IMG/VR virus record: IMGVR_UViG_3300032322_002674 | Location: 45,458 to 109,457 of that record | From: a virus | Taxonomy: Duplodnaviria > Heunggongvirae > Uroviricota > Caudoviricetes | DNA: 64,000 nucleotides | Reading direction: 5' to 3' (one strand) | Part shown: positions 16,646-51,106 of the stretch, piece by piece | Numbering within the stretch: position 1 is the first letter of the stretch | How the letters are laid out: every line of letters begins with the position of its first letter | Translations under genes and position numbers: made by a program | The notes under the pieces: model-generated | The model's database searches: none | What the model was told of the DNA's origin: nothing | The model's input: only the letters and a program-made list of their open reading frames with translations

Positions 16646-18688
16646 ATGCAAAATTCTTGTGGAATCCTTTTTATTTCAAAACCAACAAAAAAAATTGGTT
16701 TGGGTTTACGTGCAGATGGTAATAGTCCTAATACTTGGTCAACCATTGGTGGTGGAATTGAAGAAGGTGAATCTTTTTTGGAATGTCTAACAAGGGAAAT
16801 TAAAGAAGAATTGGGAATTGATTTAAACCCAAAATTAATTCCAATTGATGATAATGAAAATTATAAAACATTTATTTCTTTTGTTGATTCAGAATTCACA
16901 CCCACTCTTAATAAAGAACATTCAGATTTTAAATGGTTTGATTATTCTGAATTACCCAAAAATATCCATCCAGGACTTAACAAAACATTAACAAAACCAT
17001 TTGTTCAAAAAGTTTTAAATAAACATTTAAATGAAACCACAACTGATGCAAGTGGTAGTTTTGTGGGTACTTTAAATTCACCAATACATAGGGGTAATAT
17101 TGGGGATTATATAAAAGAGGATTTGGAGTTAAAATCCAGAGCAAAAGACCAAGAAAAACAAAGGGAAGAATATATTAAAGATTTAATAAATAAAGTGACA
17201 AAACCCCCTATAAGGGAAGTTAAATTGGAAGATTTACAGAAATTAAAAGAATGGGATATACAAAATGATACAAAATATATAAATGAATTTAATAATAGAC
17301 TTTTTGAATATTATTATGAAATTGAAAGTTATTTTGATAAAGGTGTTTTTATTTTAAAAAATGGTGAAAAATTTCAATTACAATACATAACCAATCATTT
17401 TTCTTTGGTTACACCTAAATTAAGGGATTATATTAAAGGAAATAAATGGCATGATATAGTGTACTTCTCAAACACAAAAGAAATGTTTGAAATATTGGAT
17501 AAAATAATGGAATCAGTAAATATGAAAGAAAACATAAGTATTAAAGAAAACATAAAAAATGATGGAAAAAATTATGATGTTATTCATGAAGATGATGATT
17601 TATTGGTTATAAATGTTAGAGATGCAAAAACTGCAAAATGTTTTAGTCAAAATACACAATGGTGTTCACAAAGTAATCCAGGTTTTAGAAATCATTATTT
17701 ATCAGAAGAGTTACAAAAAGAATATTTTAAAAATAAAGGTTTATTAAATGAAACAATTGTAAAAAATAATAATGAATATTGTTTAAAATCCAAAAAAGGA
17801 AAAAATTTGGGTTGTTACCCAACAAAATCTGGCGCAGAAAAAAGGGAAAGACAAGTACAATATTTTAAACACTTAAATGAATATCAGGTTTCACCTGGGG
17901 AAACAGTAGAATGGGATTTGGAAAATAATACCACCAAAATTAATCGTTTAGATGGTTCTATTGAATGGATTTTACAAAATGAACACCAAACCCTACCTTA
18001 CTTAGAAAAGTTGTTTAAAACATTAAATAAACAACAAATTATCGAATTCTCAAAAAGATTATATAATAAATTATCATCTGGTGGAAATAAAAGAAAAATC
18101 ATAATGATTGGTTTGGTTACTGCAATGATAAATTATGGTATATCAAAAGATGATATTCTTCATGAATTTAATAGTTCAGATATTGAACAACTTATTCAAA
18201 AAGATATTAAACCTAAAATAGAAAAACAATATAGGGGTGATATTAATGATTTTTTAAATCTTCTTGCATTTAAAGAAAGTTCTGGTAATTGGAAAAAAAT
18301 CAGATATTCTAAAAAAACTGGTAATCCTGTATATATTGGAAAATATCAATTTGGTAAAATTGCACTTGAAGATTTGGGTGTTAATCCTGATATTATTTTA
18401 CAATTTAAAGATAATCCTAATGTATTCCCACCAAAAATGCAAGATAATTTAGTTAAAAAATTATTAAATAAAAATAGAAAATACTTGGGTGATAATTATC
18501 TTTCTTATGATGGTAAAACTGTTGGTGGTATAAATGTTACTGAATCAGGTTTACTTGCAGCATCACATTTAAGGGGTGCTCTTGCAGTTAAGAAATTTAT
18601 TGATTCAAATGGTAAGATTGATTTATCTGATGCAAACGGAACAAAGGTTTCTGATTATATGAAATATTTTGGTGGATTTAATATTTAA
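16646..18688 (+). CDS. Multi-module polyprotein: NUDIX hydrolase + LKSRA-tagged module + lysozyme-like C-terminal domain
   Basis: GGGIEEGESFLECLTREIKEELG (Nudix box); LAFKESSG...IGKYQFG...AASHLRG (lysozyme/lytic transglycosylase-like); ATATTTAT at 16625-16632. Confidence 0.8.
   Translation: MQNSCGILFISKPTKKIGLGLRADGNSPNTWSTIGGGIEEGESFLECLTREIKEELGIDLNPKLIPIDDNENYKTFISFVDSEFTPTLNKEHSDFKWFDYSELPKNIHPGLNKTLTKPFVQKVLNKHLNETTTDASGSFVGTLNSPIHRGNIGDYIKEDLELKSRAKDQEKQREEYIKDLINKVTKPPIREVKLEDLQKLKEWDIQNDTKYINEFNNRLFEYYYEIESYFDKGVFILKNGEKFQLQYITNHFSLVTPKLRDYIKGNKWHDIVYFSNTKEMFEILDKIMESVNMKENISIKENIKNDGKNYDVIHEDDDLLVINVRDAKTAKCFSQNTQWCSQSNPGFRNHYLSEELQKEYFKNKGLLNETIVKNNNEYCLKSKKGKNLGCYPTKSGAEKRERQVQYFKHLNEYQVSPGETVEWDLENNTTKINRLDGSIEWILQNEHQTLPYLEKLFKTLNKQQIIEFSKRLYNKLSSGGNKRKIIMIGLVTAMINYGISKDDILHEFNSSDIEQLIQKDIKPKIEKQYRGDINDFLNLLAFKESSGNWKKIRYSKKTGNPVYIGKYQFGKIALEDLGVNPDIILQFKDNPNVFPPKMQDNLVKKLLNKNRKYLGDNYLSYDGKTVGGINVTESGLLAASHLRGALAVKKFIDSNGKIDLSDANGTKVSDYMKYFGGFNI
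17111..17179 (+). repeat. LKSRA peptide tag, copy 1 (IKE|DLELKSRAKDQEKQREEYIK)
   Basis: Direct translation. Confidence 0.9.
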
Positions 18689-18720
18689 TTAATTTGAAGA
18701 GTATAATAAATTATAGAAAT

Positions 18721-19334: not shown

Positions 19335-19380
19335 CTTTATTTATAAATATTAATGATAATATAATAAAGATTTTTGGAAA

Positions 19381-26554: not shown

Positions 26555-27472
26555 TTAATAATTCAAATTCATCCCTAAGTAAAGTTGTTTTATTTTAATC
26601 ACTTTTCTATGTTCTATATATTTTTTTATTTGCTCATCAGTTAAATTTTTAAATTCAAGTAAGGTAAACCAATCATCTCTTTCTAATTTTCCATTAATAT
26701 AAATTTGTTTAATATTATTTGGTAATAAATCAAAAATAATATCAATAGGATTTGTATAATCACCTTGAATTTCATGTTCATTTTCAATTTCCAAAAAACC
26801 ATTAACATCCCTTTTAATTAATTCTGAATAATAATTTACATATTTTGATAAAACTTCATTTGGTAATTTTCTTATAATATTTTCTGGAATATCTTCATAT
26901 TCACCATTCATTATTTTTTTTGAATAATATTCTATTGCCTGTTTTTCTTGGTCATTTGCACGAGATTTAAGGTTTAAATTTTCTTTCACATTTTCTTTCT
27001 TTTCCAATTTTTCAATCTGTAATTTTATTAATTGTTCAATCGTTTTAAATGGATATTTGGAAAATTGAATCTCTGAACTAAAATCAATATGATTATGATT
27101 ATCAACATCAATCCTAAATAACCAAAAATCTGAACCACTTAAATTATGAAAATAAAAATGAACTTCATGTTTACCAATGTTTTTTTCAAAGAAGATTCTA
27201 AAATCAATAACATTTGGTTCATCAGTAAAAATTATTACTTTTTTTGTTAGTTCTAATTTATATTTTTCTTTTAAATAATCAGTAAATTTATTTAATATAT
27301 CTTTTTTTTGTACACCTAAAATATTATAATCTTGGTAATTAATATCAGTAATTTCTTTTTTTAAAATCTGATTTATATATTCTTCCCTTTGTTTTTCTTG
27401 GTCTTTTGCACGACTTTTTAACTCCAAATCTTCGATTAGTTTTAATTGTTTTTCGGTAAGAATATATTTCAT
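26555..27472 (-). CDS. Two-module LKSRA-tagged polyprotein (revised start MKYILTEKQLKLIE)
   Basis: In-frame ATG at 27472 with ATATTTAT at 27478-27485; the track's 27604 start overlaps a + strand gene. Confidence 0.75.
   Translation of the reverse strand: MKYILTEKQLKLIEDLELKSRAKDQEKQREEYINQILKKEITDINYQDYNILGVQKKDILNKFTDYLKEKYKLELTKKVIIFTDEPNVIDFRIFFEKNIGKHEVHFYFHNLSGSDFWLFRIDVDNHNHIDFSSEIQFSKYPFKTIEQLIKLQIEKLEKKENVKENLNLKSRANDQEKQAIEYYSKKIMNGEYEDIPENIIRKLPNEVLSKYVNYYSELIKRDVNGFLEIENEHEIQGDYTNPIDIIFDLLPNNIKQIYINGKLERDDWFTLLEFKNLTDEQIKKYIEHRKVIKIKQLYLGMNLNY
26924..26989 (-). repeat. LKSRA peptide tag, copy 2 (VKE|NLNLKSRANDQEKQAIEYY)
   Basis: Direct translation. Confidence 0.9.
27374..27440 (-). 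repeat. LKSRA peptide tag, copy 3 (LIE|DLELKSRAKDQEKQREEYI)
   Basis: Same peptide as copy 1 but Ser-Arg encoded AGT CGT rather than TCC AGA. Confidence 0.9.
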
Positions 27473-27569: not shown

Positions 27570-28256
27570 ATGGAAAATGAGGTAATTAATACCTCACAAA
27601 CCAATTTCCCTAAGAATGTAATGGTCTTTAAATTAAAGAATGAAAGAAAAAATTTAAAAGACAGAATTAAATCTGCATATAATATAATCCTGAATGGTGA
27701 ATTATATGACGAATTTACTTTTGAAGAAAATGAAATGAATTATCTAACAAATGTTTTAAAAAAACAAGAAAAGGATAAAGAAAATTTGATTAAACAATAT
27801 AACAAAAAAGATAAATATATCCAAGATATGCTTAATTTTGACATTAAATCTTTTTTGACAAAATGGTTTGGTGAAAGAAAAATTAAAACTATTTCATCAG
27901 AAGTTAGATTTAATACAATTGAAGAAGAAAAAGAAAGATATATAAAATTAGGGGTTAATCCTGATAAAATTTTAGTTACAGATTTACCAGTGTTTACTTA
28001 TTCTTTAACAAAAAATAAAATTGTTAATTATCATGATTCTTTTGATTTAATTAGTGATGGTAATGGTAGTTTTAAAATGACTAATGAAAATAATATAACA
28101 TTAGGTGTTGAAACCTATACAGAAGATTATGTTAAAGAAAATTTAGAAAAAATAAATTCTTTAGGTATAGTAATTTACCCAACATTGAAAATTTATGATA
28201 ATGAAGAAAATAATAAATTTTACCGTTTTACATTCATTCCTGAAAAAACAAATTAA
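27570..28256 (+). CDS. Hypothetical protein
   Basis: Long ORF heading a + strand run; ATG 27570 preferred, track start 27522 also possible. Confidence 0.65.
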   Translation: MENEVINTSQTNFPKNVMVFKLKNERKNLKDRIKSAYNIILNGELYDEFTFEENEMNYLTNVLKKQEKDKENLIKQYNKKDKYIQDMLNFDIKSFLTKWFGERKIKTISSEVRFNTIEEEKERYIKLGVNPDKILVTDLPVFTYSLTKNKIVNYHDSFDLISDGNGSFKMTNENNITLGVETYTEDYVKENLEKINSLGIVIYPTLKIYDNEENNKFYRFTFIPEKTN

Positions 28257-33428: not shown

Positions 33429-33740
33429 TTAACAATCTTCTTCTTCACCAGATTCATCTTCTTCATTATAATGGGTCTTATTTGTAGTACAATAAGTAAA
33501 TGCTCTTTTATTAGTAAAAAACAAAAAACTTCTTTCTTTTATTATTTCATATTTTAAAGGATTACCGCAAACAGGACAAATCTGTAAATCATAAACACAT
33601 TTGTGTATTAAATTTTCCTTTTCTTTAATTTCCTCGTTTTCTTTTTCTTTTAAAAGAATAATTTTTCTTAATTTTTCTGTATTAATCATAATATTATTTT
33701 TTAATTGAATTTCTTCTACCGTAAAAAATGTATTTTTCAT
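33429..33740 (-). CDS. Hypothetical Zn-ribbon protein with NTFFTVEE N-terminal motif
   Basis: CPVC...C...H; the ATG at 33740 overlaps the Pnk stop (ATGA). Confidence 0.6.
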   Translation of the reverse strand: MKNTFFTVEEIQLKNNIMINTEKLRKIILLKEKENEEIKEKENLIHKCVYDLQICPVCGNPLKYEIIKERSFLFFTNKRAFTYCTTNKTHYNEEDESGEEEDC

Positions 33741-35914
33741 CTTTTTAACCATTGATTTCTTAATGCAATAATTGACACTTCTTTTAAATAATCCTTATCA
33801 AGTTGTTTTAACCAACCATAAAATTCAACATCTTCTTTAGATTTTAATTTACCGTGATTAAATGGTTTATTATCATCTTTTTGTCTTGCAACTGCATCTT
33901 TAATTCCTCTTCTATACTTCCACTTATTATAAAAATAAGTTTTGTATTTAAACATAAATTTATTCATATCCTCAAATACAAATCCCTCAATCCATTCACC
34001 ATTTAAATTATAATCATGATGAAGAATTTTTTTATAGAATTCATAAAATTCTTCCCAATGATTAAAAACTGCAACTTTTTCTTTAACATCCAATCCCAAT
34101 TCCTTACCAATTTTTAATAATTCTTCATAAGAATCAGTTTTAAATTCAATATCTCTTTTTACAGATTCAATAAGAACGATATTTGGTTTGGGATATTCAA
34201 TAATATGTGGGTCTAAATTCGGTTCAATTACCTCAAAAATAAGTGAACAATTATTATTTTTTACATAATCTTTTAGTAAGTCAAAGTTAGTGATTTTTTC
34301 TTTTAATATTTTGGCAAACATTTGGGAAAATTCTCCATCAGAAGTTGATTTTGATGATATAAAAACTTCATCTTTAATGGAATCATAACCTACCAATCCC
34401 AAAAAACCATTATATTTATGCCAACAAGTAAGTGGAAATTTTATTTTTGTAGGTAATATATCCAATGATGTTTCTTTTTGTTCTCCAATATTAAAAAATT
34501 TATCATAAGAACGAGTTATAATTTCACCATTAATTGTATTAAGAAATAATCCCCTTGCCTTAATGTTTAATTGATTCCATTTTGAATTGAAAAATGCATC
34601 ACGAGTAAAATTAAAAGAAGATATATAATTGGTTAACTTATTTTCACGAACTAATCTGGATTTTCTTAATTCATTAACCAAATTAAGTCCTTCAAGATTT
34701 ACCACTTCGGTATCAAGTTCTTCTTTTATTTTAAATAAATTATTTTTAATTTCAATACCTTTAATTTCATTACCAGATAAATGCAAAATTCTTAAATGAC
34801 CACCAAATTCAATTTTACCCTCCAAGTTAAATGATTTTTCTGATGCAAATATTGATGAGTTTTTTGAATTTCTATGACCATGAATTTGATAAATTTCCTT
34901 ATTACAGTTTTGTGAAAAAACTTCATCAATATCCAAATTATGTCTGCCAACACCTTTAATCATTTCTTGCGTTGCAATATAAATTAAATTTCTTTTTGGG
35001 AACGTAGATAAACCACCATGAGTTACAAGATATTCTTTTCCATTATATGTAAACCATGACATTTGACCTAATTTTCGATATAATTCCCTTGCATCAGATT
35101 TGGTGAAATCAGATTCTTCTAATTGGGGTTTTGTTTCAACTTCAAATACTTTAGATTTTGATATTTCATTATTACCCCATTTCCAAAGATGTATTTCATG
35201 ATTACCTTCAATAAGATAAACATTGGGTTGTTTTGATAATTCCAACATATATTTTAATACATCAGAATTATTTATACCCCTATCAATAAAGTCACCAACA
35301 AAAATATATTGATTTTCTAAAGAAAAAGGATTATCTTGAAAAAATTGAATTAAAGGTTCAACACAACCATGAATATCACCGAATATATAAACATTTTTAT
35401 AATTGGATAAATCAATTGGTTTTGCATGAATATTTTCAAATAAATTATCAGGTTTTGTTATAATAAACCTACCTTGAGGTTTTTCCAAATCATATCTTGC
35501 AAATGCACGGTGAATAACTTCTTCTGGAACAAATTTATATTCATCACGCATTTTATTTTGTTTTAAAACCCTTTCTATTGGAACATCAGTAAAATCCAAT
35601 ACAAATGCACGATAACGATAATTTTCAATTAATTTTTTATAACGTTGAAAATTTGTTCTACCTTGATGTGTTGCATCTATTACCGTTAATTCACCCCTTT
35701 CCATTCGTTTTTCAAGAAGTTCAAAAAGTAATGACCAAACTTTGTTATCATTATTCATTGAAATATTTAAACCACCCAATTCATTAAGAGATGGTGATTG
35801 AAATAATAAACGAATTTGGTCTGGGGAAAGTGTATATTCCTCCAGACCATTATTTTTAATAAAAGTTGATTTTCCTGAACCAGGACAACCCCTTGTTAGA
35901 ATTAAAGTTCTCAT
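33737..35914 (-). CDS. Polynucleotide kinase - metallophosphoesterase - RNA ligase fusion (RNA repair)
   Basis: RGCPGSGKST P-loop; GDIHG, GDFIDRG, GNHE, HGG, HGH phosphoesterase motifs; ARGLF, DKFFNIGE, KYNG, EGFV, FKYKT ligase motifs. Confidence 0.9.
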   Translation of the reverse strand: MRTLILTRGCPGSGKSTFIKNNGLEEYTLSPDQIRLLFQSPSLNELGGLNISMNNDNKVWSLLFELLEKRMERGELTVIDATHQGRTNFQRYKKLIENYRYRAFVLDFTDVPIERVLKQNKMRDEYKFVPEEVIHRAFARYDLEKPQGRFIITKPDNLFENIHAKPIDLSNYKNVYIFGDIHGCVEPLIQFFQDNPFSLENQYIFVGDFIDRGINNSDVLKYMLELSKQPNVYLIEGNHEIHLWKWGNNEISKSKVFEVETKPQLEESDFTKSDARELYRKLGQMSWFTYNGKEYLVTHGGLSTFPKRNLIYIATQEMIKGVGRHNLDIDEVFSQNCNKEIYQIHGHRNSKNSSIFASEKSFNLEGKIEFGGHLRILHLSGNEIKGIEIKNNLFKIKEELDTEVVNLEGLNLVNELRKSRLVRENKLTNYISSFNFTRDAFFNSKWNQLNIKARGLFLNTINGEIITRSYDKFFNIGEQKETSLDILPTKIKFPLTCWHKYNGFLGLVGYDSIKDEVFISSKSTSDGEFSQMFAKILKEKITNFDLLKDYVKNNNCSLIFEVIEPNLDPHIIEYPKPNIVLIESVKRDIEFKTDSYEELLKIGKELGLDVKEKVAVFNHWEEFYEFYKKILHHDYNLNGEWIEGFVFEDMNKFMFKYKTYFYNKWKYRRGIKDAVARQKDDNKPFNHGKLKSKEDVEFYGWLKQLDKDYLKEVSIIALRNQWLKR

Positions 35915-36112: not shown

Positions 36113-36280
36113 TTATTGTTTTTTTAATTTTTGTTCATCAATTTCTTTCGCAGTAAAAGGAATTCTATCCATGACCATACCATAACCTTTATCAATCCAT
36201 CTTTTATAGATTAAAGTTTTTAAACCCCTTTCCCAGAACCAAACATAAAGTTCATTACCTTTTTTTTCTTTACTAATCAT
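36113..36280 (-). CDS. Small hypothetical protein (55 aa; not in ORF track)
   Basis: MISKEKKGNELYVWFWERG...; ATGA overlap with the gltX stop. Confidence 0.55.
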   Translation of the reverse strand: MISKEKKGNELYVWFWERGLKTLIYKRWIDKGYGMVMDRIPFTAKEIDEQKLKKQ

Positions 36281-37839
36281 TTGACTAAGGTTTTTTGAAC
36301 AAATTCATAATAAGATTCCAATCTTGAAATTGTTTCTTTATAACCCCACAGAACCATTAAATCAAACAAACCAGGTGAAGGTTCACCCCCAGTCAAAGAT
36401 TGTCTTAAATACATCATTATGTCCTTTTGTTGACATTCTAATTGTGTTATTAATTCCAATCCTTTTAATTGAAATCCATCCAAATCTGTTGGTTTTGTTT
36501 CTTTTAAATAATTAATATATTCGGAAAACCATTTTTCTTGTGTTTCACCCCAATTTTTAAATGATTCAGGGTTTAAATTATTTAAGTCAAACGAATTCCA
36601 AAACCATTTTGTTAGGGAATAAAAATTTGGATAGAATTTTTCTTTTTCACCTTTTTCAGTCATTTCTTTTAAGGTAATATCTTTAAAAGACATAACCTTA
36701 TCTTTGGTTAAATCCCACATTTTTTCAACCAATTCTTTTCCATACAATTCATAAAGTTTTTCACCTTTATCATTAACCAATTGTTCAAGTGCAAGATTAT
36801 TATCCATTACTTTGATATATTGATTATTATACCACAATGCCTTTTTGAAATTGTATCTTGCTCCAGATTTGGAAACTCTTTCGATTGAAAAAGATTGAAT
36901 TAATTCATCAATGGTATATAATTCTTTATTACCACCAGGATTCCAACCCAAAAATGCAAGGAAATTATTTACTGCTTCAGGTAAAAATCCCATTTCTTTA
37001 AATTGAAGTGGATAAACAGGAATACCAAATGCATCACCATCACGTTTACTTAATTTACCATTTCCTTCAGGTCTAAGAATTAAAGGTAGGTGTGCAAATG
37101 TTGGATGTTCCCAACCAAATGATTCATATAACATTATATGTGTAGGTACAGATGATAACCATTCTTCACCACGAATAACATGTGTGGTTTGCATTAAATG
37201 GTCATCTACCACATTTGCAAGATGGTAAGTTGGAAGATTATCTTTAGATTTCCAAATAACTTTATCATCACATTCTGATGTATTAAATTTAACTTTACCA
37301 CGAATCATATCTGTGAAAATAATATCACGATTTTTTGGCATTAATAATCTAACACAATAAGGGTGATTTTCTTCTAAAAGTTTTTTTGTTTCTGATTCAG
37401 GAAGAACTAAAGAGTTCTTCATATATTGACGAGTAACTGAATCATATTTTGCAGAACGAGATTTACCACCGAAATCTTCTCTCATTTTTTCAAGTTCATC
37501 AGGGGTATCGAATGCATAATATGCATAACCTTTATTTAAAAGAATTTGAACATGTTCTTTATAGATTTCAGTTCTTTGGGATTGAGTGTAAGGACCGAAT
37601 TGTCCACCGTGTTTTGGGGATTCATCAGGCATAATACCTAACCACTCTAAAGAATCATAGATATATTTTTCTGCAGTTGGAACGAAACGTTCCCTATCTG
37701 TATCCTCGATTCGGATATAGAAATCACCACCGAGTTTCTTTGCTAATAGATAATTGAATAGTGCTGTACGCACACCACCGATGTGTAGAGTGCCGCTGGG
37801 AGAAGGTGAGAACCTTAATCTAATCTTTTTTTCTGACAT
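36277..37839 (-). CDS. gltX: Glutamate--tRNA ligase
   Basis: RFSPSPSGTLHIGG, IRIEDTD, YHLANVVDDHLMQTTHVIRGEEW, HLPLIL...GKLSKRDGD, LGWNPG. Confidence 0.95.
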   Translation of the reverse strand: MSEKKIRLRFSPSPSGTLHIGGVRTALFNYLLAKKLGGDFYIRIEDTDRERFVPTAEKYIYDSLEWLGIMPDESPKHGGQFGPYTQSQRTEIYKEHVQILLNKGYAYYAFDTPDELEKMREDFGGKSRSAKYDSVTRQYMKNSLVLPESETKKLLEENHPYCVRLLMPKNRDIIFTDMIRGKVKFNTSECDDKVIWKSKDNLPTYHLANVVDDHLMQTTHVIRGEEWLSSVPTHIMLYESFGWEHPTFAHLPLILRPEGNGKLSKRDGDAFGIPVYPLQFKEMGFLPEAVNNFLAFLGWNPGGNKELYTIDELIQSFSIERVSKSGARYNFKKALWYNNQYIKVMDNNLALEQLVNDKGEKLYELYGKELVEKMWDLTKDKVMSFKDITLKEMTEKGEKEKFYPNFYSLTKWFWNSFDLNNLNPESFKNWGETQEKWFSEYINYLKETKPTDLDGFQLKGLELITQLECQQKDIMMYLRQSLTGGEPSPGLFDLMVLWGYKETISRLESYYEFVQKTLVK

Positions 37840-39654: not shown

Positions 39655-42600
39655 TTTCCTCCAATCTCTTATATAATTCACCAACCGAATAAAATTTTTC
39701 ATCTAATAGTAGTCCTGTTGTACCAATTTTTTTATCATCAAAACATCTTAAAACAAAGTAATTTCTTGTTGATACAAAAATTGTAATGTGACTTGGTTTG
39801 TTGTCATAAGTAATATAAATAAAATTATCATCATGTTTTAAATTTGGGAATTTTTGTTTTATTCTATTAATTATAAATTTATCCATAAAATGTTCATCAA
39901 TTTTTTCAACTTCAACTACTTCTTTTGGTTTTAAATCCATAATTGATTTATCACCAATAATATTTTTTATATAATCATTTCTTTGTTTTTCTTGTTGATT
40001 TGCTCTAGAAGTTAGTTTTAAATTTTCTTTTATATTTTGTTTTTTATAATTTCTTACTAATTTTTTTAAATAATCTGGATATAAAAAATAAAAATCTTTA
40101 TCATAATTTTTGATTATTAAACCAATATACTTATTTAACAATTCATTTGAAGTATTTTTTACTTGTTCTTTAGAAAGTACTCTTGGTGTATTATTTGGAT
40201 TTAAAAATAAATAATTAATGTATTTTTCTTTTAAATCATCAGTCAAAAATTTATACTGAATATCTGATAAATTCCAATTAACGTGTTTTAAAATTTTATT
40301 TAAATAATATTGTTTTAAATCATCTGATAAAGATAAAAAATATTCATCACTCAAACCCCAACCAGAATCAATATATTCTTTTTTTAGTGGTTTACTTAAA
40401 TCTAAGAAATAATCATATTTAAGTAAATTTGGGTAGAAATTAATAATTTTAGATTTAACATCATCTGAAAGAAGTTTAAAAACCTCTTTAGGTATTTTTA
40501 AATTAAGTTTTTCACTATGAGTACCATTTAAAAATTTATCTGAATAGTATTTTACTGATTGAATTATTTGGTTATTTGCACGAGATTTTAAATTTAATCC
40601 TTCATTTAAGTTTTTTAATATAACAGAAAAAACCCAATAGTAACCAGAATTATTTCCTTTAGATAAAACTTTAAGTGTTGGATTTTTTTCTTTTATTGTT
40701 TGTAATCTTAAATTAAGATTATCAAAATTAGTATCAAAAATTAAAGACAAATTAGTAATTTTCGTATTACCTTTTTCGTAAGATATTTTATAGTTGTCAA
40801 TATCAATAACTAATGAATTTAAATTTATTGAATCATTTTTACTTATATTTAACAGTTTATTTCTTAAATCCTCTAAATTATTAGCACTAATATTAATTTG
40901 TTCATTTTTATTTTCTGAAACAACAAAAAAACTTTGTTTGTAATAAATTGTTTCACCACCTAACAAAAAATTAATTGTAACTGTTTTAATTTTTTTAGAA
41001 TTACCACCGTAATGATTTTTTAGTCTATCTTCTAATCCAGAAATTTGTTGGTTATGTCTTTGTTCAAAGTTATCACCAATACTACCTCTTGTAGTGAATA
41101 TAGTATAAGAATTACCATCTTTTGATTCAATAATATCACAAGAACTTTCTGTTATTATTTTATTATCTTTTACATAAGTTTTTATTTGTATGTTAGTTAC
41201 ATCTGTTTTAAAACCTTGATTATTTAATTTTTTTAGTTCATCAGAAACTCTTTGTTCAAAATCATCTGAAAGTCTTTTTGAACCCAGTATTCCATGCACT
41301 AAATCTAAGTCAGGGTTTGAAATTGATTGTACACCAACAGGTCCATTAACTTTAGATAAAATTTTTGTTTGTATTTGTTGTTGATTAATATTTTGAGATT
41401 TAACTTCTTGCGGATTTAAGGATGATAAACCTATCGCAGTACCAATTAACATATCTTTCCAACTTTCATTTAAATCTTTTCTTTTAATAAATGTAACATT
41501 TCCTTTGTATTCCAATTTATAATCTTGCGGTAGGTTTTTTGATAAAAATAATCTATTTATTTTTGCTCTTTTATTTGGTTCGTTGTCATCTTTTTTATTC
41601 CCACTTAAAATAGAATCAATTGAAAATCTTCCCATTGTTTCCTTTCTTGAATCAATATGTGAAATGGTTATTATTTCAGGTCTATAATCATTAATAAATT
41701 CATTTGTTATTTTTGTAACAGTACCAAGAACTCTTAAAGAATTTTCTTTATTTAATTCATTCATCCATTTTGATGTTGTGTAATATTCTCTTTCCCATTC
41801 TTCACCAAACTTTCCAATTGATAAAAGAAGAAATTTAACAAAGAATATTTCCTCACCATCTGAAAAACGATATTTTATTTTATCACCATCCACAATTTTT
41901 TCATAAGAATAAGTGTTGGTTAATTCTGCAATTTCATTAATTTGTTTTTTAGATTCTTTTAAATTTTTAAAATCAAGTAAATTACCATTAGAATCATAAG
42001 TTTTGGAAATTGAATAAAATAAAAATTCTAGAATTTCATTGATTGTATCAAACTCTATGTTTATATTCTTTAATGTTCTTTCTTGTGTTATTATATCTCT
42101 TGGACCTAAAATATGTAAGTTTATTTTATCTAAATGTTGAGTAATTGAAAACGAACCAATGATATTTTTAAAACGTATATTTTTAAAATCAACTTTATCA
42201 AAATTAAGATTATTTTCATAAAATTTATCAAAAGTATTAATAAAAGGATATTTTTCTTTAACTTTTTGTCTTATAATTAAACCCAATAAATTCAAAATAT
42301 TTTCAGGTAAATCTTTTACTGGTGAATTTAGAATTTTATCATCAATATTTTTAATGTATTCTTCCCTTTGTTTTTCCTGTTCTTTTGCACGAGATTTTAA
42401 ATTTAAATTTTCTTTTAAATTATAATTATCAGAAATAATTTCTTCCAATTTATTATATAATTCACCTACTGTATTAAATTCTTCTTCCATTATAATTTCA
42501 CCAAAACCATTATATGTTGTGATTGGTGTATAAAAATGTAAAAAAAATTTTTTCCCATTCGAGAAGAAAAGTAGTTTTTTATTTCTTATATCTATAAGAA

Positions 42601-43231
42601 ATAGATTATTATACTTTAATTTTGGGAATTTTTGTTTTAATTTATTAATTAATATTGGAAATATAAATTTAGACAAAAAAGTTGAATTTACTTCTTTTGG
42701 GGTTAATTCCATTATATCTTTATTTCCAATAATACTTTTTATATATTCTTCTCTTTGTTTCTCTTGTTCTCCAGCACGAGATTTTAAATTCAATTTATTT
42801 TCAACCAAATCAATTTCAGTATTATTACCAAAAGTTTTGATTTTATAGTTACTTGGTAATACTTTTTCCAAAAAATATTTGTTCACCCTTGTTCTTTTAT
42901 TTTCATCATAGGGGTTATTTGCAAATTCACTTTTACTTCTTACATGGTAAATTTTTATTTTCTTTGGGTTATATTTTTCAATAAAATCCAAAGTAATTTT
43001 TGTTATTGTATTTAATATTTTAAATCTTTCCTGACTATTAATATCATCAAATTGTTTCTCAAATGTTGAAAAATGTCTATTCCAAATATCATTACCATCT
43101 AATATAAAATCTACTGAAAAATTATAATCATCATCAGTCTTAAAATTATACGTAATAATATTTAGATTCCTATTTTTAGTTCTTTTTGTAATATAAACAT
43201 TAGATAAATCTACTATTTCGGTTAAAAACAT
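39629..43231 (-). CDS. 1200-aa seven-module polyprotein with four LKSRA tags
   Basis: Modules delimited by [LIV]xE; two family-A domains, two paralogous tagged domains, one helical-repeat domain. Confidence 0.8.
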   Translation of the reverse strand: MFLTEIVDLSNVYITKRTKNRNLNIITYNFKTDDDYNFSVDFILDGNDIWNRHFSTFEKQFDDINSQERFKILNTITKITLDFIEKYNPKKIKIYHVRSKSEFANNPYDENKRTRVNKYFLEKVLPSNYKIKTFGNNTEIDLVENKLNLKSRAGEQEKQREEYIKSIIGNKDIMELTPKEVNSTFLSKFIFPILINKLKQKFPKLKYNNLFLIDIRNKKLLFFSNGKKFFLHFYTPITTYNGFGEIIMEEEFNTVGELYNKLEEIISDNYNLKENLNLKSRAKEQEKQREEYIKNIDDKILNSPVKDLPENILNLLGLIIRQKVKEKYPFINTFDKFYENNLNFDKVDFKNIRFKNIIGSFSITQHLDKINLHILGPRDIITQERTLKNINIEFDTINEILEFLFYSISKTYDSNGNLLDFKNLKESKKQINEIAELTNTYSYEKIVDGDKIKYRFSDGEEIFFVKFLLLSIGKFGEEWEREYYTTSKWMNELNKENSLRVLGTVTKITNEFINDYRPEIITISHIDSRKETMGRFSIDSILSGNKKDDNEPNKRAKINRLFLSKNLPQDYKLEYKGNVTFIKRKDLNESWKDMLIGTAIGLSSLNPQEVKSQNINQQQIQTKILSKVNGPVGVQSISNPDLDLVHGILGSKRLSDDFEQRVSDELKKLNNQGFKTDVTNIQIKTYVKDNKIITESSCDIIESKDGNSYTIFTTRGSIGDNFEQRHNQQISGLEDRLKNHYGGNSKKIKTVTINFLLGGETIYYKQSFFVVSENKNEQINISANNLEDLRNKLLNISKNDSINLNSLVIDIDNYKISYEKGNTKITNLSLIFDTNFDNLNLRLQTIKEKNPTLKVLSKGNNSGYYWVFSVILKNLNEGLNLKSRANNQIIQSVKYYSDKFLNGTHSEKLNLKIPKEVFKLLSDDVKSKIINFYPNLLKYDYFLDLSKPLKKEYIDSGWGLSDEYFLSLSDDLKQYYLNKILKHVNWNLSDIQYKFLTDDLKEKYINYLFLNPNNTPRVLSKEQVKNTSNELLNKYIGLIIKNYDKDFYFLYPDYLKKLVRNYKKQNIKENLKLTSRANQQEKQRNDYIKNIIGDKSIMDLKPKEVVEVEKIDEHFMDKFIINRIKQKFPNLKHDDNFIYITYDNKPSHITIFVSTRNYFVLRCFDDKKIGTTGLLLDEKFYSVGELYKRLEEIISQNYIP
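39969..40033 (-). repeat. LKSRA peptide tag, copy 4 (IKE|NLKLTSRANQQEKQRNDYI)
   Basis: Direct translation. Confidence 0.85.
40544..40610 (-). repeat. LKSRA peptide tag, copy 5 (LNE|GLNLKSRANNQIIQSVKYY)
   Basis: Direct translation; most diverged copy. Confidence 0.8.
42352..42418 (-). repeat. LKSRA peptide tag, copy 6 (LKE|NLNLKSRAKEQEKQREEYI)
   Basis: Direct translation. Confidence 0.9.
42741..42810 (-). repeat. LKSRA peptide tag, copy 7 (LVE|NKLNLKSRAGEQEKQREEYI)
   Basis: Direct translation. Confidence 0.9.
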
Positions 43232-43240: not shown

Positions 43241-43259
43241 ATATTTATATAATAAATAT
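43241..43259. promoter_or_regulatory. Divergent pair of putative late promoters (ATATTTAT-ata-ATAAATAT)
   Basis: Inverted repeat in the 34-bp gap between the polyprotein gene and terL. Confidence 0.6.
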
Positions 43260-43265: not shown

Positions 43266-44936
43266 ATGGATAATAATTTATTTTTAGAATATGCACGTTG
43301 TTTAAGTGATTCAATTTACACAATTGAAACATATTTACAAACTTTTGATAAAACTCAAGGTGGATATGTTCCATTTAAACTATTCCCAAAACAAAAGGAA
43401 TTAATTGAAAATTATGAAAAGAATAATTTTGTTATATTAAAAAAACCAAGACAGGCAGGTATTACAACAACAACTGCAGCATGGGTTTCACATAGAGTTG
43501 GTCTTGCAGATGAATTAAGACCAGAAAGAATACTTCTTATTGCAAATAAACATGAAACTTCACAGAAATTTCTTGCTCAAGTAAAAGAATTTTTATCCCA
43601 ATACCCTAAATGGATGGATGTGTCTATTGCAAAAGATGCAGTAAAATGGAATGAAAAACATATAATACTTAAAAATGGTTCAGAAGTTAAGGCAGTTGCA
43701 ACATCAATTGACTCTTTAAGGGGTTATTCACCAACAATAGTTATATTTGATGAGGCAGCATTTATTGATAATGGTGATGAATTATGGAAGGCAACATTTC
43801 CATCACTATCAACTGGTGGTAAATGTTTTATGATTTCCACTACAAATGGTATGGACCCATTATATTTTGTTACTTATGATTCTTCTTTACAAGGAAAAAA
43901 TGACTTTAAAATAGTTGAAGTTGAATGGTGGCAAGACCCAAGATATAATAAAAATTTGGAATGGAGAAAAGATGATGATATAATTAAAAGTCAAGATTTG
44001 GATTTGGGTAAAGAATTAAAAAGAAAAGGTTATAAACCCTGGTCTCCCTGGTATGAAAATATGTGCAGACAAATGAATTGGAATCAAAGAGCAATTGCAC
44101 AAGAATTGGATGGTGATTTCGTTGGTTCTGGTGGTAATGTTATTGATGAAGAATATATTAAAATGCAAGAAGTTGAAAATGTATCAGAACCTATAAGAAA
44201 GGAAAATTTTGATGGTAATATGTGGATATGGAAAGACCCTGAATATGGTAAAAGATATATATTAAGTTGTGATGTATCTTCTTCTTTTGGTACAGATTAC
44301 TCAACAATACAAATAATTGATATTGAAAATAATGAACAAGTTGCAGAATATCAGGGTAAAATAAGACCAGATACATTTGCAGAATTAATATATGAATATT
44401 GGAAACGTTATGGTGGGTTAATAGTTCCTGATGTTACAGGTGGTATGGGATTAACTGTTATTCTTAAATTATACGAATTAGGTTTGGATAAAAAGAATAT
44501 GTATTATGATATACCAAAGGCAAAGATAATGAATGATAAATTTTCTCACTTAAAAACATCTGATGAAAAAATGCCAGGTTTCCAAATCCAATCAAATAGA
44601 GCATTAATTGTTGATGAATTTGAAAGACAAATAAGAATGAATGAGTTTAAAGTACGTTCTTCTCGTTTATGTAGTGAAATGAAAACATTTATTTATGATA
44701 GAAGTGGAAAACCAAACCATACAAAAAATACTCATGATGATTTAATAATGGGTTGTGCAATGGGGTTATATGTTATTCAAACTTCTTTAAAATTTATTGA
44801 TAAAAATATGAATCATGCAAAGGCAATACTTAATGCAATGATAAATGTAAATAACAAGGAAACTGTTTCTAATAATGAAAGATTTATTAGTCCAGAAAAT
44901 AAACAATATATGGATAATATGTGGTTGTTTAGGTAA
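43266..44936 (+). CDS. terL: Terminase large subunit (T4 gp17-like)
   Basis: FKLFPKQ (Q motif), KPRQAGITT (Walker A), IFDEAAF (Walker B), STTNG, QELDGDFVGSG, nuclease D...DYS and HDDLIM. Confidence 0.95.
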   Translation: MDNNLFLEYARCLSDSIYTIETYLQTFDKTQGGYVPFKLFPKQKELIENYEKNNFVILKKPRQAGITTTTAAWVSHRVGLADELRPERILLIANKHETSQKFLAQVKEFLSQYPKWMDVSIAKDAVKWNEKHIILKNGSEVKAVATSIDSLRGYSPTIVIFDEAAFIDNGDELWKATFPSLSTGGKCFMISTTNGMDPLYFVTYDSSLQGKNDFKIVEVEWWQDPRYNKNLEWRKDDDIIKSQDLDLGKELKRKGYKPWSPWYENMCRQMNWNQRAIAQELDGDFVGSGGNVIDEEYIKMQEVENVSEPIRKENFDGNMWIWKDPEYGKRYILSCDVSSSFGTDYSTIQIIDIENNEQVAEYQGKIRPDTFAELIYEYWKRYGGLIVPDVTGGMGLTVILKLYELGLDKKNMYYDIPKAKIMNDKFSHLKTSDEKMPGFQIQSNRALIVDEFERQIRMNEFKVRSSRLCSEMKTFIYDRSGKPNHTKNTHDDLIMGCAMGLYVIQTSLKFIDKNMNHAKAILNAMINVNNKETVSNNERFISPENKQYMDNMWLFR

Positions 44937-47016: not shown

Positions 47017-49584
47017 TTAGAAAAAATTTGGGTTTAAGAATACTCCAGAAAAAGTTAATGGAGTGATTAAAGTGATATTATTTGGTCTGTTTTGAAACAA
47101 AACTTGTGATGCAACCAAACCAGAATTTTGGTTATTTAAAATAACCCTTTCAACACTCAATTCACAATTATCGTTCATAATAATTGAATTTCCTGATTGC
47201 CAAAATCCACATGTTGTAAGTAATCCATTAATTTTACCTACTTGTGGTAAAACTACTTTAGAATCAATTTGTAATGTAGAAAGTTCTGTTTCTAAATGTG
47301 GTGGTTGTTCATTTTTAAATTCAGAACCATAATCAATACCTTTTTTATATTGAAATTTTTGTCTATCAAATAAGGTATTTCTATATTTTTCACCACCTTT
47401 CCATATTGTAGTTGCAGGAATAAATTGTTGTATTAAACCAAACCAATAGGAATCAATTAAATTAATATATTGATTCATCATTATTTGATATGTTAAACCT
47501 TTTGAATCAATTCCACACTTTTCTAAAGAATTTAAATAATCTTCATAAATCATTCTTAATGTTGGGTAATAAGATACTGTTTTTCTTGTTCTTGCATCAA
47601 TAAATCTTTCATAACTTAATTTAATGAATTCTGAAAAAGTCATTGCAGATATTGATTTATCATAACCATAGGTAGGATACTTTGAAATATCGCAAAGTGG
47701 ATAATTGGTTTTATAAAAATTAAATACATCACATTCTATTGCCTTTGCTGGGTCTAAAAATAATGTTACTTCCTTTGTATTTATTATTAATTCACTTCTT
47801 TTTTCATTATAATTGGTTTCCCTTAATTCTAAATTATAATTTCTATTGGTTGTATTACCTGTATAAACCCAAGATTTTTTATTATCTTCTGTTAAATTTA
47901 AAATAAAACCAATATCACGAAATTTATCCATATATTTTTGACCAAAATCATAAGAACCTTCATGGTAAACATTTTCTTCAAACCAACCACCATTCATTTG
48001 AAAATAATAATCAAAAGTATTGGGTAGTTTATTAGGAAAACCTTCTTCGGAAATTGGGTAATCAGACATATTAATTGATAATCCTGATAAATTAATTAAA
48101 TTTAATTTTAATTGGTCATAATCTACAATATTATCTACTGTGTAAACATGTTCATTAAAATCAACTAAACAATCTGGTGCACCGATAAATCTAAACAAAA
48201 ATTCTAAAACTTTTCTTGTTCCTTTTCCTTTCCATAAAAATGAAGAATTTAAAATAATTCTTCTCCAAAGTTCAATGTCCATTTCTGATGGAGTTAAAAA
48301 AGTTTTATTGTTACCATAAATGGGTGAATCCCCTGTTGAAACAAAGAATTTTAATAAATCATTTTCGTTAATTGATTGTAAAACATCAAAACCTAAAACT
48401 TTTGCAAAATTTTTAACTAATTGGTCTGGTAAATTTTCTAATTCCCTATTGTATTGTATTGTTGATGAAAATGCAATAGAATCAATAAATAATTTTATTT
48501 CATCCAATTCCCTTCCATAAACTTTTAACATTTTATCAAATTTTAAATTTGGTGTATCAAATTCCTTTAAAACTGATGTGGTTAAAAATCTTGAAACTAA
48601 ATCAGTTTTATATTGGTCATAAGTTAATGCAAGATTATTTAAATCATTTAAATACAATTGATATAGACTGGTGTTAATATCAATATTATAACCATCTGAT
48701 GTGGGAAATGTGAAACTTTGTTCTGTAAAACTGGTAATTCCATTACTATCTTCTTCTATTACTGAAAAAGTTGCAGTATATTTTGGTGTAGTATCCCTAT
48801 TTAATAAATAAGATTGAAAATAAGAAATAGAATTAAAAAAATTATCAATTACATTTTGGATAGGTTTTATATGATAAGTTATAGAAAGTGAAGTATTACC
48901 ACTAAAAGGATTTCCTTCACAAACTATTGTTAAAAATCCAGTACTAACAGTAGTAGAACCAGTAAATTCCAATATTTTATAACCAGATTCAAAAGGTGGG
49001 AAAGAAATTTCGTAATTCAAAAAATTTGCAGAAATGTTTCTTAAATCATTTGTTGGTGAAAAAGAATTAATTAAAACATCTTCTTCCGTATAAGACATTT
49101 CAAAATTATTAACAAAAGAAGATACTGGAACATTAAAAGTTGATTTGTTTGTTAAAGAATCATAAACATTATTTAATACTGTAATTTTAACTTGACCATC
49201 AATAAGTGATGAAACAACTAAAGATGATGGAAATTTTTCAATAATATCTTCTATTTCAACTCTTATAAATTCTTTTAAAGAACCAAAATATGCATAGTTT
49301 TTTAAATTTTTTCTATCATAATTTAAAAATATCTTAATATTGTTTGATTCTATGTTTTCTGAATTACTTTCTAAATTAATTGTTTCTACTGTTATAGGAT
49401 TAGAAAAACTTCCTAAAGTATAATTTTTAACAAATCTTTCTTCTAAATTTGATGTAATTTCAAAGTTACCAAATGTAAAAAGTGAACTACCATTGGTTAT
49501 TTGCAAACCAACTAAGTTTGGTGAAAAATCACTTTTATTATATGCATCCGTTAAGGACTTTGGTATGACTTTTTTATTACTCAT
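47017..49584 (-). CDS. Baseplate wedge / P2 gpI-like tail protein
   Basis: LPDQLVKNFAKVLGF...RRIILNSSFLWKGKGTRKVLEFLFRFIG resembles the Tail_P2_I KGT motif. Confidence 0.6.
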   Translation of the reverse strand: MSNKKVIPKSLTDAYNKSDFSPNLVGLQITNGSSLFTFGNFEITSNLEERFVKNYTLGSFSNPITVETINLESNSENIESNNIKIFLNYDRKNLKNYAYFGSLKEFIRVEIEDIIEKFPSSLVVSSLIDGQVKITVLNNVYDSLTNKSTFNVPVSSFVNNFEMSYTEEDVLINSFSPTNDLRNISANFLNYEISFPPFESGYKILEFTGSTTVSTGFLTIVCEGNPFSGNTSLSITYHIKPIQNVIDNFFNSISYFQSYLLNRDTTPKYTATFSVIEEDSNGITSFTEQSFTFPTSDGYNIDINTSLYQLYLNDLNNLALTYDQYKTDLVSRFLTTSVLKEFDTPNLKFDKMLKVYGRELDEIKLFIDSIAFSSTIQYNRELENLPDQLVKNFAKVLGFDVLQSINENDLLKFFVSTGDSPIYGNNKTFLTPSEMDIELWRRIILNSSFLWKGKGTRKVLEFLFRFIGAPDCLVDFNEHVYTVDNIVDYDQLKLNLINLSGLSINMSDYPISEEGFPNKLPNTFDYYFQMNGGWFEENVYHEGSYDFGQKYMDKFRDIGFILNLTEDNKKSWVYTGNTTNRNYNLELRETNYNEKRSELIINTKEVTLFLDPAKAIECDVFNFYKTNYPLCDISKYPTYGYDKSISAMTFSEFIKLSYERFIDARTRKTVSYYPTLRMIYEDYLNSLEKCGIDSKGLTYQIMMNQYINLIDSYWFGLIQQFIPATTIWKGGEKYRNTLFDRQKFQYKKGIDYGSEFKNEQPPHLETELSTLQIDSKVVLPQVGKINGLLTTCGFWQSGNSIIMNDNCELSVERVILNNQNSGLVASQVLFQNRPNNITLITPLTFSGVFLNPNFF

Positions 49585-51106
49585 TTGTTATATCACCCTC
49601 TTTTAGAATTTCAGTTAATGTTTCTATTAATGTTTTATAATTTGTTGCAAATTCTGATTTTTTAAAACCTTTATTAAAATGACCTTTACCTATTATCATT
49701 ATTTTAAATAATCCAAAAGTTGGCACTACTATAACTACAACTTCTGTATTACCATGAGTAAATTTTAAAAAACTATCAGTTATTTTATAATCCCAATAAT
49801 TACGTAAAACACCCAAATCTTCAATAACTTTTTTCCAAATTATATCTAATTTCTCAAAATTAAAAAATGTTTTTATGTCTTTTGCATTAATATTTTCAAT
49901 TCCTTTTGAAATAATGGTTTTAATATATTCTTCCTTTTGTTTTTCCTGTTCTTTTGCACGAGATTTTAAATTTAATACTTCATTTATATTTCTATTTTCA
50001 ATATACCATGTCATTTTATAATTTGATATACCAAGACCCATTTCATCAAGTCTAATTTTAATATATTTTAATTTTAATTCATCTGGGGCAAAATCAAATT
50101 CTTCATCTGATAAAACTGAACCTTTATGTTGGTTTTCAATTATATATTTAATGTATTTTAATTTTAAATCATTTGATAAAGAATTAAATTTTTCTTTTGT
50201 TAAACCAAAACCAACTTTACGATTGATAATGTTTTCAACATATTTTAATTTAATATTATCTGGTAATTTATCAAAAATATTATCTGGAATATCCCATTCA
50301 CCTTCCTCAATTTTCTTTGTATAATATTCTATTGCTTGTTTTTCCTGGTCATTTGCTCTGGATTTAATCTTATCACTTAAACTTTCACTTAATCTTTTTA
50401 TCCATAATTTAGATTTCTTTAAATCTTTTATATAATCACCAATAAATTCTTCTTTTAATGATAAATCATCCCACATATAGACTTCTAAGGTTTTTTGATA
50501 ACCTTTCATTACCTTCTTAATATTTTTTTCATCACTTAAATAACAATTAAGAAGTGTTGTTGGATAACCACCTTTTTGAATAACAAAATATTTTTCTTCA
50601 CCAATTAAAATATCCCCTATTACATAATCCAATTCTGTTTCATCCATAGGAATTCTTAGTCCACCTTTGGATATTTTAAAAGATTCAGAAATTGGTAAAT
50701 CAATAAAAGAAATAATTATAGGTGCATTTTTATTACCACCTAAAAAGTAACCCCATGCAGTAAATCCATCATCCCAAGATTGTTTAAAATAAGAATCAAA
50801 TGAATTATAATCATCATCCAATTTTTTATATTTATAGGGGTTATCATTGATAGGATAAATGTCATTAATGGGTATATAACAAATATAAAGGTAATTTGTA
50901 TTAACACCTTTATCAAATTTATAACCATCTTCATTACAATAAAAAAAACTTCTCGATTTACCCCAAATCCTAAATTCATTTTTTGAATGAATATTATAGG
51001 GTTTATTTACTTGAATAAATCCAGAATCAATTTTTTTATCAGAATAGTGATATAATTTCACCATCCCATTTTCTACTGTAAGTGATTTTAAGAAATTTTT
51101 ACCCAT
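49577..51106 (-). CDS. Multi-module polyprotein: possible ART-like N-terminal domain plus two LKSRA-tagged modules
   Basis: KLYHYS...RSFFY at the N-terminus; two tags; helical repeats; ATATTTAT at 51113-51120. Confidence 0.7.
   Translation of the reverse strand: MGKNFLKSLTVENGMVKLYHYSDKKIDSGFIQVNKPYNIHSKNEFRIWGKSRSFFYCNEDGYKFDKGVNTNYLYICYIPINDIYPINDNPYKYKKLDDDYNSFDSYFKQSWDDGFTAWGYFLGGNKNAPIIISFIDLPISESFKISKGGLRIPMDETELDYVIGDILIGEEKYFVIQKGGYPTTLLNCYLSDEKNIKKVMKGYQKTLEVYMWDDLSLKEEFIGDYIKDLKKSKLWIKRLSESLSDKIKSRANDQEKQAIEYYTKKIEEGEWDIPDNIFDKLPDNIKLKYVENIINRKVGFGLTKEKFNSLSNDLKLKYIKYIIENQHKGSVLSDEEFDFAPDELKLKYIKIRLDEMGLGISNYKMTWYIENRNINEVLNLKSRAKEQEKQKEEYIKTIISKGIENINAKDIKTFFNFEKLDIIWKKVIEDLGVLRNYWDYKITDSFLKFTHGNTEVVVIVVPTFGLFKIMIIGKGHFNKGFKKSEFATNYKTLIETLTEILKEGDITNE
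49922..49988 (-). repeat. LKSRA peptide tag, copy 8 (INE|VLNLKSRAKEQEKQKEEYI)
   Basis: Direct translation. Confidence 0.9.
50321..50393 (-). repeat. LKSRA peptide tag, copy 9 (LSE|SLSDKIKSRANDQEKQAIEYY)
   Basis: Direct translation. Confidence 0.85.

Follow-up and report, generated by a model that had tools for sequence, protein, structure and literature searches.

A junction cassette repeated in predicted polyproteins of a divergent, T4-related phage

Why should one short peptide recur at the joints of proteins whose other parts have little in common? The question is raised by a 64,000-nucleotide stretch of viral DNA (hereafter the window), corresponding to positions 45458-109457 of a 173,457-bp linear viral contig of IMG/VR (IMGVR_UViG_3300032322_002674), in which four open reading frames (ORFs) carry nine copies of a peptide that we call the tag. 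The source of this contig, which has a G+C content of 24% and an estimated completeness of 82% (CheckV), is a deeply divergent, contractile-tailed, T4-related phage that is uncultured and very AT-rich. An earlier note on the window had described the nine copies, each behind a site resembling those cut by prohead proteases, and had read the four ORFs as capsid-packaged polyproteins cut into separate effectors. All nine copies were found where the note had placed them, and its reading is upheld in part: the tag is a junction element at module boundaries in a T4-type context, and cutting and packaging are predictions; the term effectors is not established, because most of the tagged modules are small, non-enzymatic domains without recognizable function. 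The junction cassette formed by the tag and the site before it is genuine and modular, cannot be put down to chance, and does not depend on the fold behind it. Packaged polyproteins processed into commonly tagged modules are in our judgement the best reading of it, with about an even chance of being right. All claims made here rest on sequence and predicted structure from a rare, uncultured lineage.

The junction cassette

The cassette can be described as two parts, i.e., a short and probably flexible spacer bearing [L/I/V]-x-Glu, and a predicted polar helix, L-K-S-(R/K)-(A/V)-x-x-Q-E-K-Q-(R/K)-E-E-(Y/F)-(I/V), whose C-terminal half would merge into the next fold. Its consensus reads [LIV]-x-E-[GNDS]-L-x-L-[KT]-S-R-A-x-x-Q-E-K-Q-R-E-E-Y-I, with a variant E-x-L-x-D-K-I-K-S-R-A. 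The codon of the K/T residue starts at window position 17132 on the plus strand, and at 50365, 49966, 42784, 42397, 40588, 40012, 27418 and 26968 on the minus strand. The upstream triplets reported earlier (IKE, LIE, VKE, LVE, LKE, LNE, IKE, LSE and INE) are present before each copy, with their Glu five residues from the K/T in seven copies, six in one and seven in one.

Four genes carry these junctions, in which an arrow marks the predicted cut. P0001 (16646..18688, +; 680 residues) begins with a NUDIX domain (Pfam E 6.7e-14), followed by the first junction and tag (17111..17185, +; YIKE↓DLEL-KSRAKDQEKQREEYI), a compact module called D, to which the D-module hidden Markov model (HMM) aligns over residues 151-296, and further modules; the lysozyme-like C-terminus once proposed for this protein was not recovered, Pfam finding nothing in residues 480-680. 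P0002, also labelled P0008 (26555..27472, -), consists of a 14-residue leader, a tag with a D module (27365..27439, -; KLIE↓DLEL-KSRAKDQEKQREEYI) and a tag with a helical module (26915..26989, -; NVKE↓NLNL-KSRANDQEKQAIEYY). The four ORFs stand as first described except for the start of this one, which is likely the ATG at 27472 (MKYILTEKQLKLIE) rather than the TTG at 27604, since relatives begin with the same leader. P0003 (39629..43231, -; 1200 residues) is the longest chain of the four, with a family-A domain, a tag and D module (42731..42808, -; DLVE↓NKLNL-KSRAGEQEKQREEYI, Glu at -6, the segment that was modelled), a tag and D' module (42344..42418, -; NLKE↓NLNL-KSRAKEQEKQREEYI), a second family-A domain, a beta-rich domain, a deviant tag with a helical module (40535..40609, -; NLNE↓GLNL-KSRANNQIIQSVKYY) and a tag, deviant by the replacement of K by T, with a D module (39959..40033, -; NIKE↓NLKL-TSRANQQEKQRNDYI). 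Finally, P0004 (49577..51106, -; 509 residues) starts with an ADP-ribosyltransferase (ART)-like domain, which is a lead only, followed by a tag with a helical module (50312..50392, -; RLSE↓SLSDKI-KSRANDQEKQAIEYY, Glu at -7, also modelled) and a tag with a D module (49913..49987, -; NINE↓VLNL-KSRAKEQEKQKEEYI). The division of cargo drawn in the earlier note also holds, six QREEYI-type tags leading a compact alpha/beta module according to both HMM and model, and three QAIEYY- or QSVKYY-type tags leading a helical repeat according to the model.

The window holds only part of the tag set: 17 tags occur in seven ORFs of the contig, P0001-P0004 inside the window and P0005-P0007 outside it, and eight additional tags are contributed by two genes for which a second assembly of this phage is the only source. 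One of the 17 forms the extreme N-terminus of P0006 (MGNLKLTSRA), and the other 16 are internal. [LIV]xE precedes 16 of these 16, its Glu lying 5, 6 or 7 residues before the K/T, against a background rate of 0.021 per position in the tag proteins; in shuffled proteins, 1.5 of 16 sites had it on average, and never more than 7. When relatives are included, [LIV]-x-E stands before 58 of 58 internal tags, with P3 being L at 31 sites, I at 23 and V at 4, and never A, S or G. P1 is invariably Glu, never Asp, P2 is variable, and P1' is N, G, S or D at 56 of the 58 sites. The predicted product boundaries bear the T4-type (L/I)-x-Glu processing motif at all 58 tags, and the (A/S/G)-x-Glu motif of phiKZ and SPN3US at none; at the level of sequence, this P3/P1 pattern fits the published rule of T4 gp21 and not the A/S/G-x-E rule of phiKZ/SPN3US (PMC5694885, PMC10052503). 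The extended P' context (xLxL) is absent from other sites across the proteome. Across relatives, the distance from Glu to K takes values of 3, 5, 6 or 7 residues without loss of conservation in either element, which indicates that the Glu site and the helix are two linear elements and not one rigid structure.

Gene starts follow the same boundary. P0006, P0012, P0022 and P0015 begin with MGNLKLTSRA, MGKIELKSRA or MSIRNKLKSKV and retain no [LIV]xE, their start Met replacing the Glu of the predicted cut exactly or within one residue. P0002, P0017 and nine relatives instead begin with a 14-residue leader, MK[YF][LI]ITE[KR]QLxL[IF]E, with the tag directly after it (P0009-P0011, P0013, P0016, P0017, P0023 and P0024 are recorded as leader-bearing relatives). 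P0003 starts with MFLTE (window 43217-43231) and P0007 with MFINE (contig G000:C1:125010-125024), and the tag proteins outside these two groups have no leader. Several stand-alone ORFs carry amphipathic leaders of the form hydrophobic-x-E-hydrophobic-hydrophobic-x-E, e.g., MKSIYNLFKEIISE.

A close relative with an 88%-identical terminase (L016) bears on how modules come and go. Its P0003 ortholog (L016:40-960, -) has only 306 residues and fuses residues 1-145 to 423-588, so that its junction reads INLVE↓SKQVINE↓IAEL where this phage has IDLVE↓NKLNLKSRA...NLKE↓SKKQINE↓IAEL. Read in this way, the 277-residue tag-D-tag-D' cassette (P0003 residues 146-422) spans from a P1' to the next P1. The ortholog ends with KDLN and a stop codon where P0003 continues DLNE↓SWKD, and has nothing beyond the second family-A domain. 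The comparison shows that, judging from the aligned proteins, whole modules have recently been gained or lost at junctions. The order of modules varies among relatives, and a tag-less module of P0001 and P0022 likewise has [LIV]xE before it (SIKE↓N and NLSE↓N).

The tag might still be the first helix of one known domain, and structural models were examined in this light. An AlphaFold2 model of a junction with its compact module, built on a 41-sequence alignment, reached a mean predicted local distance difference test (pLDDT) score of 81.7 and a predicted TM score (pTM) of 0.72. In this model, residues 1-11, including LVE, are coil with a pLDDT of about 54, the tag forms a helix over residues 12-31, and an alpha-beta4-alpha core follows. 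The second module type (13 sequences, pLDDT 87.4) was modelled as a long N-terminal helix and then an alpha-solenoid. Searches with Foldseek against PDB, AFDB and BFVD, an atlas search and an all-against-all comparison with VIA gave, for the compact module, generic matches only, with Z at most 7.4 (frataxin, PsiB and Med17-like sandwiches), nearly all of which cover residues 42-137 and leave the tag helix out; the best matches of the alpha-solenoid module start near residue 40, past the tag helix. No Pfam family matched tag plus module, Foldseek and VIA again returning generic matches. One of the fold matches, a weak one (TM 0.41, E 0.05), was to a 'polyvalent protein-associated domain' and is not evidence of membership. 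The tag helix is fused to an alpha/beta sandwich, an alpha-solenoid and a third module type, and its C-terminal half changes with the cargo behind it, being REEYI before the sandwich and AIEYY before the solenoid, while the N-terminal half is common. The proposal that the tag is the first helix of one known domain was rejected because the tag heads two unrelated predicted folds and is excluded from the structural matches; the models and matches instead suggest that the earlier note was right to see a separately conserved element.

The tag family is very rare. A profile of tag plus compact module, run against 1.84 billion representative proteins, yielded only 22 relatives, all multi-module metagenomic proteins bearing either this tag or a diverged version of it, [LI]xE[SG][IV][RK]DKLKSKxxxIxxQKEEYI. 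A scan of IMG/VR with the tag pattern gave no confirmed relatives, and neither P0003 nor its 855-residue neighbor (see below) matched any of 50,697 phage records by tblastn.

Processing, linkage or exchange

Under the processing reading, tag proteins would enter the prohead, where a T4-type, Glu-specific maturation protease of the gp21 family would cut after the Glu and free modules of about 130-200 residues, each beginning with the same helix. This helix could then act as a common handle, either as a protease exosite or for retention or ejection, and the cut could equally fall within the L-K-S-R-A core. That the tag serves in packaging, in ordering ejection or in docking is purely inferential. 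A bolder version, in which the helix is an N-terminal signal exposed by maturation cleavage that governs the fate of each module, such as ordered exit through portal and tail or docking in the host, seems to us improbable; if true, it would amount to a secretion-signal-like address for phage-injected proteins and would allow injected cargo to be predicted from sequence alone.

The head genes of this lineage are compatible with such a protease. The other assembly (L020 and L022), reached by exact-protein look-up, extends past the 5' end of the contig and is identical to it in gene sizes and order over 14 kb. There, a baseplate wedge gene is followed by P0017, a 290-residue protein, an overlapping 1399-residue protein, a portal and a 240-residue helical protein; given these genes beyond its 5' end, the IMG/VR contig is without part of the tag family and the head module. 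P0017 (L022:9503-9955, -; 150 residues) comprises leader, tag and D module. The 1399-residue polyprotein (L022:10866-15065, +), which has an HD phosphohydrolase domain and seven tags, lies directly upstream of the T4-type portal (L022:15325-17157; 610 residues; phrog_213 E 1.6e-59; phmmer with T4 gp20, E 1.7e-26), and the 240-residue protein after the portal contains eight [LIV]xE[NST] sites. Portal relatives were found in IMG/VR at 62 loci with 50-55% identity, among which a T4 gp21 homolog (E about 1e-19) lies some 1.5 kb downstream in 46 and a gp23 homolog occurs in 28. Their order of portal, a protein of about 240 residues, a protein of about 156 residues, gp21 and, further on, gp23 is that of T4, and their protein of about 240 residues is homologous to the 240-residue protein of this phage (E 2e-9). 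The T4-type portal, together with gp21 and gp23 in the related loci, points to a lineage that uses T4-type head assembly.

Several observations weigh against processing in the head. None of the 62 portal relatives carries the tag, and the gene order from portal to protease breaks after the 240-residue gene in this phage. Searches of the 173-kb contig and of 15 kb from the other assembly detected no gp21-, gp23-, HK97- or S78-type gene, whether with PF03420, PF07068, PF07230, phrog_207, phrog_138, phrog_213, PF04586 and PF05065, with T4 proteins by phmmer, or with HMMs derived from the portal relatives (33 gp21-like and 23 gp23-like proteins). Several tag genes sit among tail and baseplate genes, not head genes. 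[LIV]xE is common in these Lys/Glu/Ile-rich proteins, at about one per 48 residues, so that by itself it is weak evidence. The most conserved residues of the tag are those of L-K-S-R-A, not the Glu site, conservation peaking at L-K-S-[RK]-[AV], where Ser and Arg/Lys are each kept in 59 of 60 copies. Moreover, the model of the helical module runs one unbroken helix through the Glu site, and the rare Arg codons conserved in the tags fit DNA ancestry or recombination as well as peptide selection.

Part of this evidence favors proteins that are never cut. The junctions would then be linkers with a docking or oligomerization helix, spacing the modules or binding one partner in common (a chaperone, DNA or a virion component, for example), and [LIV]xE would be a helix-capping or packing motif. 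The tag helix is modelled confidently in both module types (pLDDT 75-96), the L-K-S-R-A core and the polar face Q-E-K-Q are conserved in the manner of a binding surface, the helical-module helix passes straight through the Glu site, and the contig and the L020/L022 sequence yielded no protease gene. However, tags at protein N-termini do without [LIV]xE, which is therefore not needed for the fold, and a capping motif accounts poorly for a spacing between Glu and helix that varies from 3 to 7 residues. Nor does it account for a P1 that never departs from Glu and a P3 confined to L, I or V over very diverged tags, matching a known protease rule, or for tag-less module boundaries and gene ends that also fall at [LIV]xE. 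On balance, we consider uncleaved multidomain proteins unlikely, though a serious alternative to processed polyproteins.

The codons of the tag bear on a different proposal, namely that the junction is the boundary of a DNA-level recombination cassette, a stretch of about 60 nt that promotes exchange, gain and loss of paralogous modules, with peptide conservation being secondary. The earlier note had argued from switching Ser-Arg codons that selection acts on the peptide. The switching is real, but selection on the peptide alone does not follow, since rare Arg codons are conserved. The first Arg of the tag is encoded by CGT in 12 of 16 tags, as compared with 12% of Arg codons genome-wide, relatives being likewise enriched in CGN at this position, and the second Arg (Q-R-E-E) is mostly AGG, which makes up 15% of Arg codons genome-wide (examples at window 27410-27418 and 42776-42784). 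Mean nucleotide identity among tags (0.72) exceeds amino-acid identity (0.65). The rare Arg codons imply that the DNA of the tags is conserved too, through shared ancestry or exchange in addition to peptide constraint; common descent of the DNA, gene conversion or a preference for slow codons where modules begin could each account for them. The two-module cassette missing from the close relative ends exactly at junctions, and relatives differ in module order, both as expected of recombination at these sites. Nevertheless, Ser-Arg is kept in a pair of tags whose flanks are identical but whose Ser-Arg codons differ at 5 of 6 bases, and diverged relatives retain the peptide pattern (KSKV...QKEEYI) with different DNA. 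Recombination is moreover compatible with proteolysis, in that it would account for the spread of modules and not for the role of the junction in the protein; as the main explanation it seems to us rather improbable.

Finally, recognition of the tag by the phage's own ClpP, Clp ATPase and DnaJ or by M42 aminopeptidases, as a degron or adaptor site or with a cut in L-K-S-R↓A, is very improbable: a bona fide ClpP (NF001368, 260 bits), an 811-residue Clp ATPase and an M42 peptidase (E 2.1e-63) are encoded, and the Ser and Arg/Lys of the tag are its most conserved residues, but Clp proteases are processive and do not cut at defined junctions, no positional link joins the Clp and M42 genes to the tag genes, and the invariant [LIV]xE is left unexplained.

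Upstream motif and gene surroundings

The shared upstream motif of the four window genes was also upheld, ATATTTAT lying 12-30 nt upstream of each of them (e.g., window 16617-16624, 43250-43257 and 51120-51127) and, for P0002, immediately upstream of the ATG at 27472. At this distance it precedes 36 of 214 ORFs, as compared with 2.9 in shuffles and 6 for its reverse complement. It is found before every tag gene or its operon leader, and before the genes for the terminase, the portal, the 240-residue protein, a sheath-like protein and PhoH; as PhoH is among them, the motif is not specific to virion genes. ATATTTAT is a candidate late or middle promoter element.

The P0003 gene adjoins the large terminase (TerL) gene (43266-44936, +). 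Directly after the LNE↓S junction of P0003, residues ~589-603 (window 41443-41487) are hydrophobic (WKDMLIGTAIGLSSL) and resemble a membrane or signal segment; the beta-rich domain that they head occurs in P0024 too. The P0004 gene overlaps the start of the 855-residue structural-looking gene and faces a gp25 baseplate wedge gene (51462-51839, +; GPW_gp25, E 1.4e-13). For the N-terminal domain of P0004, all atlas feature hits belong to the ART clan, with scores of 0.84-0.88 that make it a lead only, and a word-index search returned three close homologs only; altogether, two N-terminal domains have atlas neighbors in the ART clan only (scores 0.84-0.89, again leads only). The identified cargo thus comprises NUDIX, HD phosphohydrolase and the two ART-like leads, and the modules have no consistent acidic or basic character (isoelectric points of 4.6-9.3).

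The window also encodes a T4_baseplate-family protein and an Amidase_2 (Pfam), a head-tail adaptor-like protein and a sheath-like protein whose C-terminus resembles a protein of the far-T4 phage RM378. Its T4-type portal, baseplate and neck genes place the phage among the T4-related myoviruses, a gp23-type capsid protein not having been found; one portion of its remaining genome is visible only through L020/L022. Most other window proteins have no match in Pfam or PHROGs, and searches of PHROGs, Pfam, PDB sequences and the atlas were uninformative for about 45 further ORFs, candidate structural genes included. A fusion of Pnk, phosphatase and RNA ligase (33737-35914, -; phrog_8238, E 1e-216) adjoins a gene for a 520-residue protein (36277-37839, -) with relatives on huge-phage contigs (LR7565xx).

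Several genes for proteolysis or chaperones lie on the contig. A full-length homolog of M42 glutamyl-aminopeptidase (Pfam E 2.1e-63) is encoded amid tail genes (window 10078-11208, -), and a second 'peptidase' of 587 residues (phrog_4191) at genome positions 2479-4242. Outside the window are a cellular-type ClpP (G000:C1:8257-8916, -; NF001368, above its cut-off), a Clp ATPase truncated by the contig end whose best matches are ClpB and ClpA (G000:C1:1-2435, -; 811 residues) and a DnaJ-like protein (G000:C1:28063-28890, -). Together, ClpP, the Clp ATPase and the DnaJ-like protein are a phage-borne Clp/chaperone set. This ClpP (PF00574) was considered as a prohead protease and rejected, scoring 260 bits with the NCBIfam model of cellular ClpP as compared with 88 bits, below cut-off, with that of head-maturation ClpP-related proteins.

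Comparison with known systems

If the predicted cleavage takes place, head cargo in this phage would be packaged as polyproteins whose every product starts with the same helix, which exceeds the T4 model of a single removable leader per protein. Uncultured phages could then be searched by sequence for packaged or injected proteins, with the cassette as the handle, and foreign proteins might be loaded into capsids with it as a portable tag of a second kind. As the junction marks the gain and loss of modules, it also shows directly how cargo repertoires evolve.

The closest parallel is T4, in which head proteins are cleaved after (L/I)-x-Glu (PMC5694885, PMC9026906). The capsid targeting sequence of T4 has 10 residues, with processing determinants at positions 8 and 10; the cleavage sites of Alt are ITE-6 and LTE-619, and that of gp21 is LIE-9 (PMC9026906, PMC5694885). 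The 14-residue leader ending in LIE resembles this targeting sequence and the LIE-9 site of gp21 (PMC9026906), and the five-residue N-termini of P0003 and P0007, ending in [LI]xE, resemble the ITE-6 propeptide of Alt. As with IPI-III and Alt, the genes are dispersed, in a phage with a T4-type portal and baseplate genes, and the putative leaders, where present, are short, end in (L/I)-x-Glu and precede cargo that is unrelated in sequence and includes an ADP-ribosyltransferase, represented here by the ART-like leads. No sequence homology links the tag proteins to the T4 internal proteins or Alt. Unlike these, many modules are strung in a single ORF here, and unlike in T4, no protease gene was found on the covered sequence of this phage (the 173-kb contig and L020/L022).

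In phiKZ, 201phi2-1 and SPN3US, a gp21-related protease makes several cuts after Glu in paralogous head proteins, whose fragments are retained in the head (PMC10052503, PMC5694885). Their P3 is Ala, Ser or Gly, unlike the Leu, Ile or Val of all 58 sites considered here, they are not reported to share a post-cleavage helix, and they have no sequence relationship to the tag proteins. Polyvalent proteins, described from phages and conjugative elements (Iyer et al. 2017, PMC5512222), string many disparate domains (ART, kinase-like, phosphohydrolase and peptidoglycan-active) into long chains that are predicted to travel with DNA and to be released by proteolysis. The tag proteins share this multi-domain make-up, with NUDIX, HD phosphohydrolase, the ART-like leads and two non-enzymatic module folds. 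The polyvalent hub domains (zincin-like MPTase and others) had no Pfam match in P0001-P0007, ART-PolyVal appearing as an atlas hit only (0.85), and the junctions of polyvalent proteins have no common motif, unlike those of the tag polyproteins. Picornavirus-like polyproteins, which are unrelated, give rise to many products from a single ORF, as is predicted here, with a short linear motif at each boundary; unlike here, their protease lies inside the polyprotein, and their products have no repeated starting helix. In T4 the conserved element stands before the cut and occurs once, whereas here it follows the predicted cut and is repeated at each joint; this repeated post-junction helix is the new element here.

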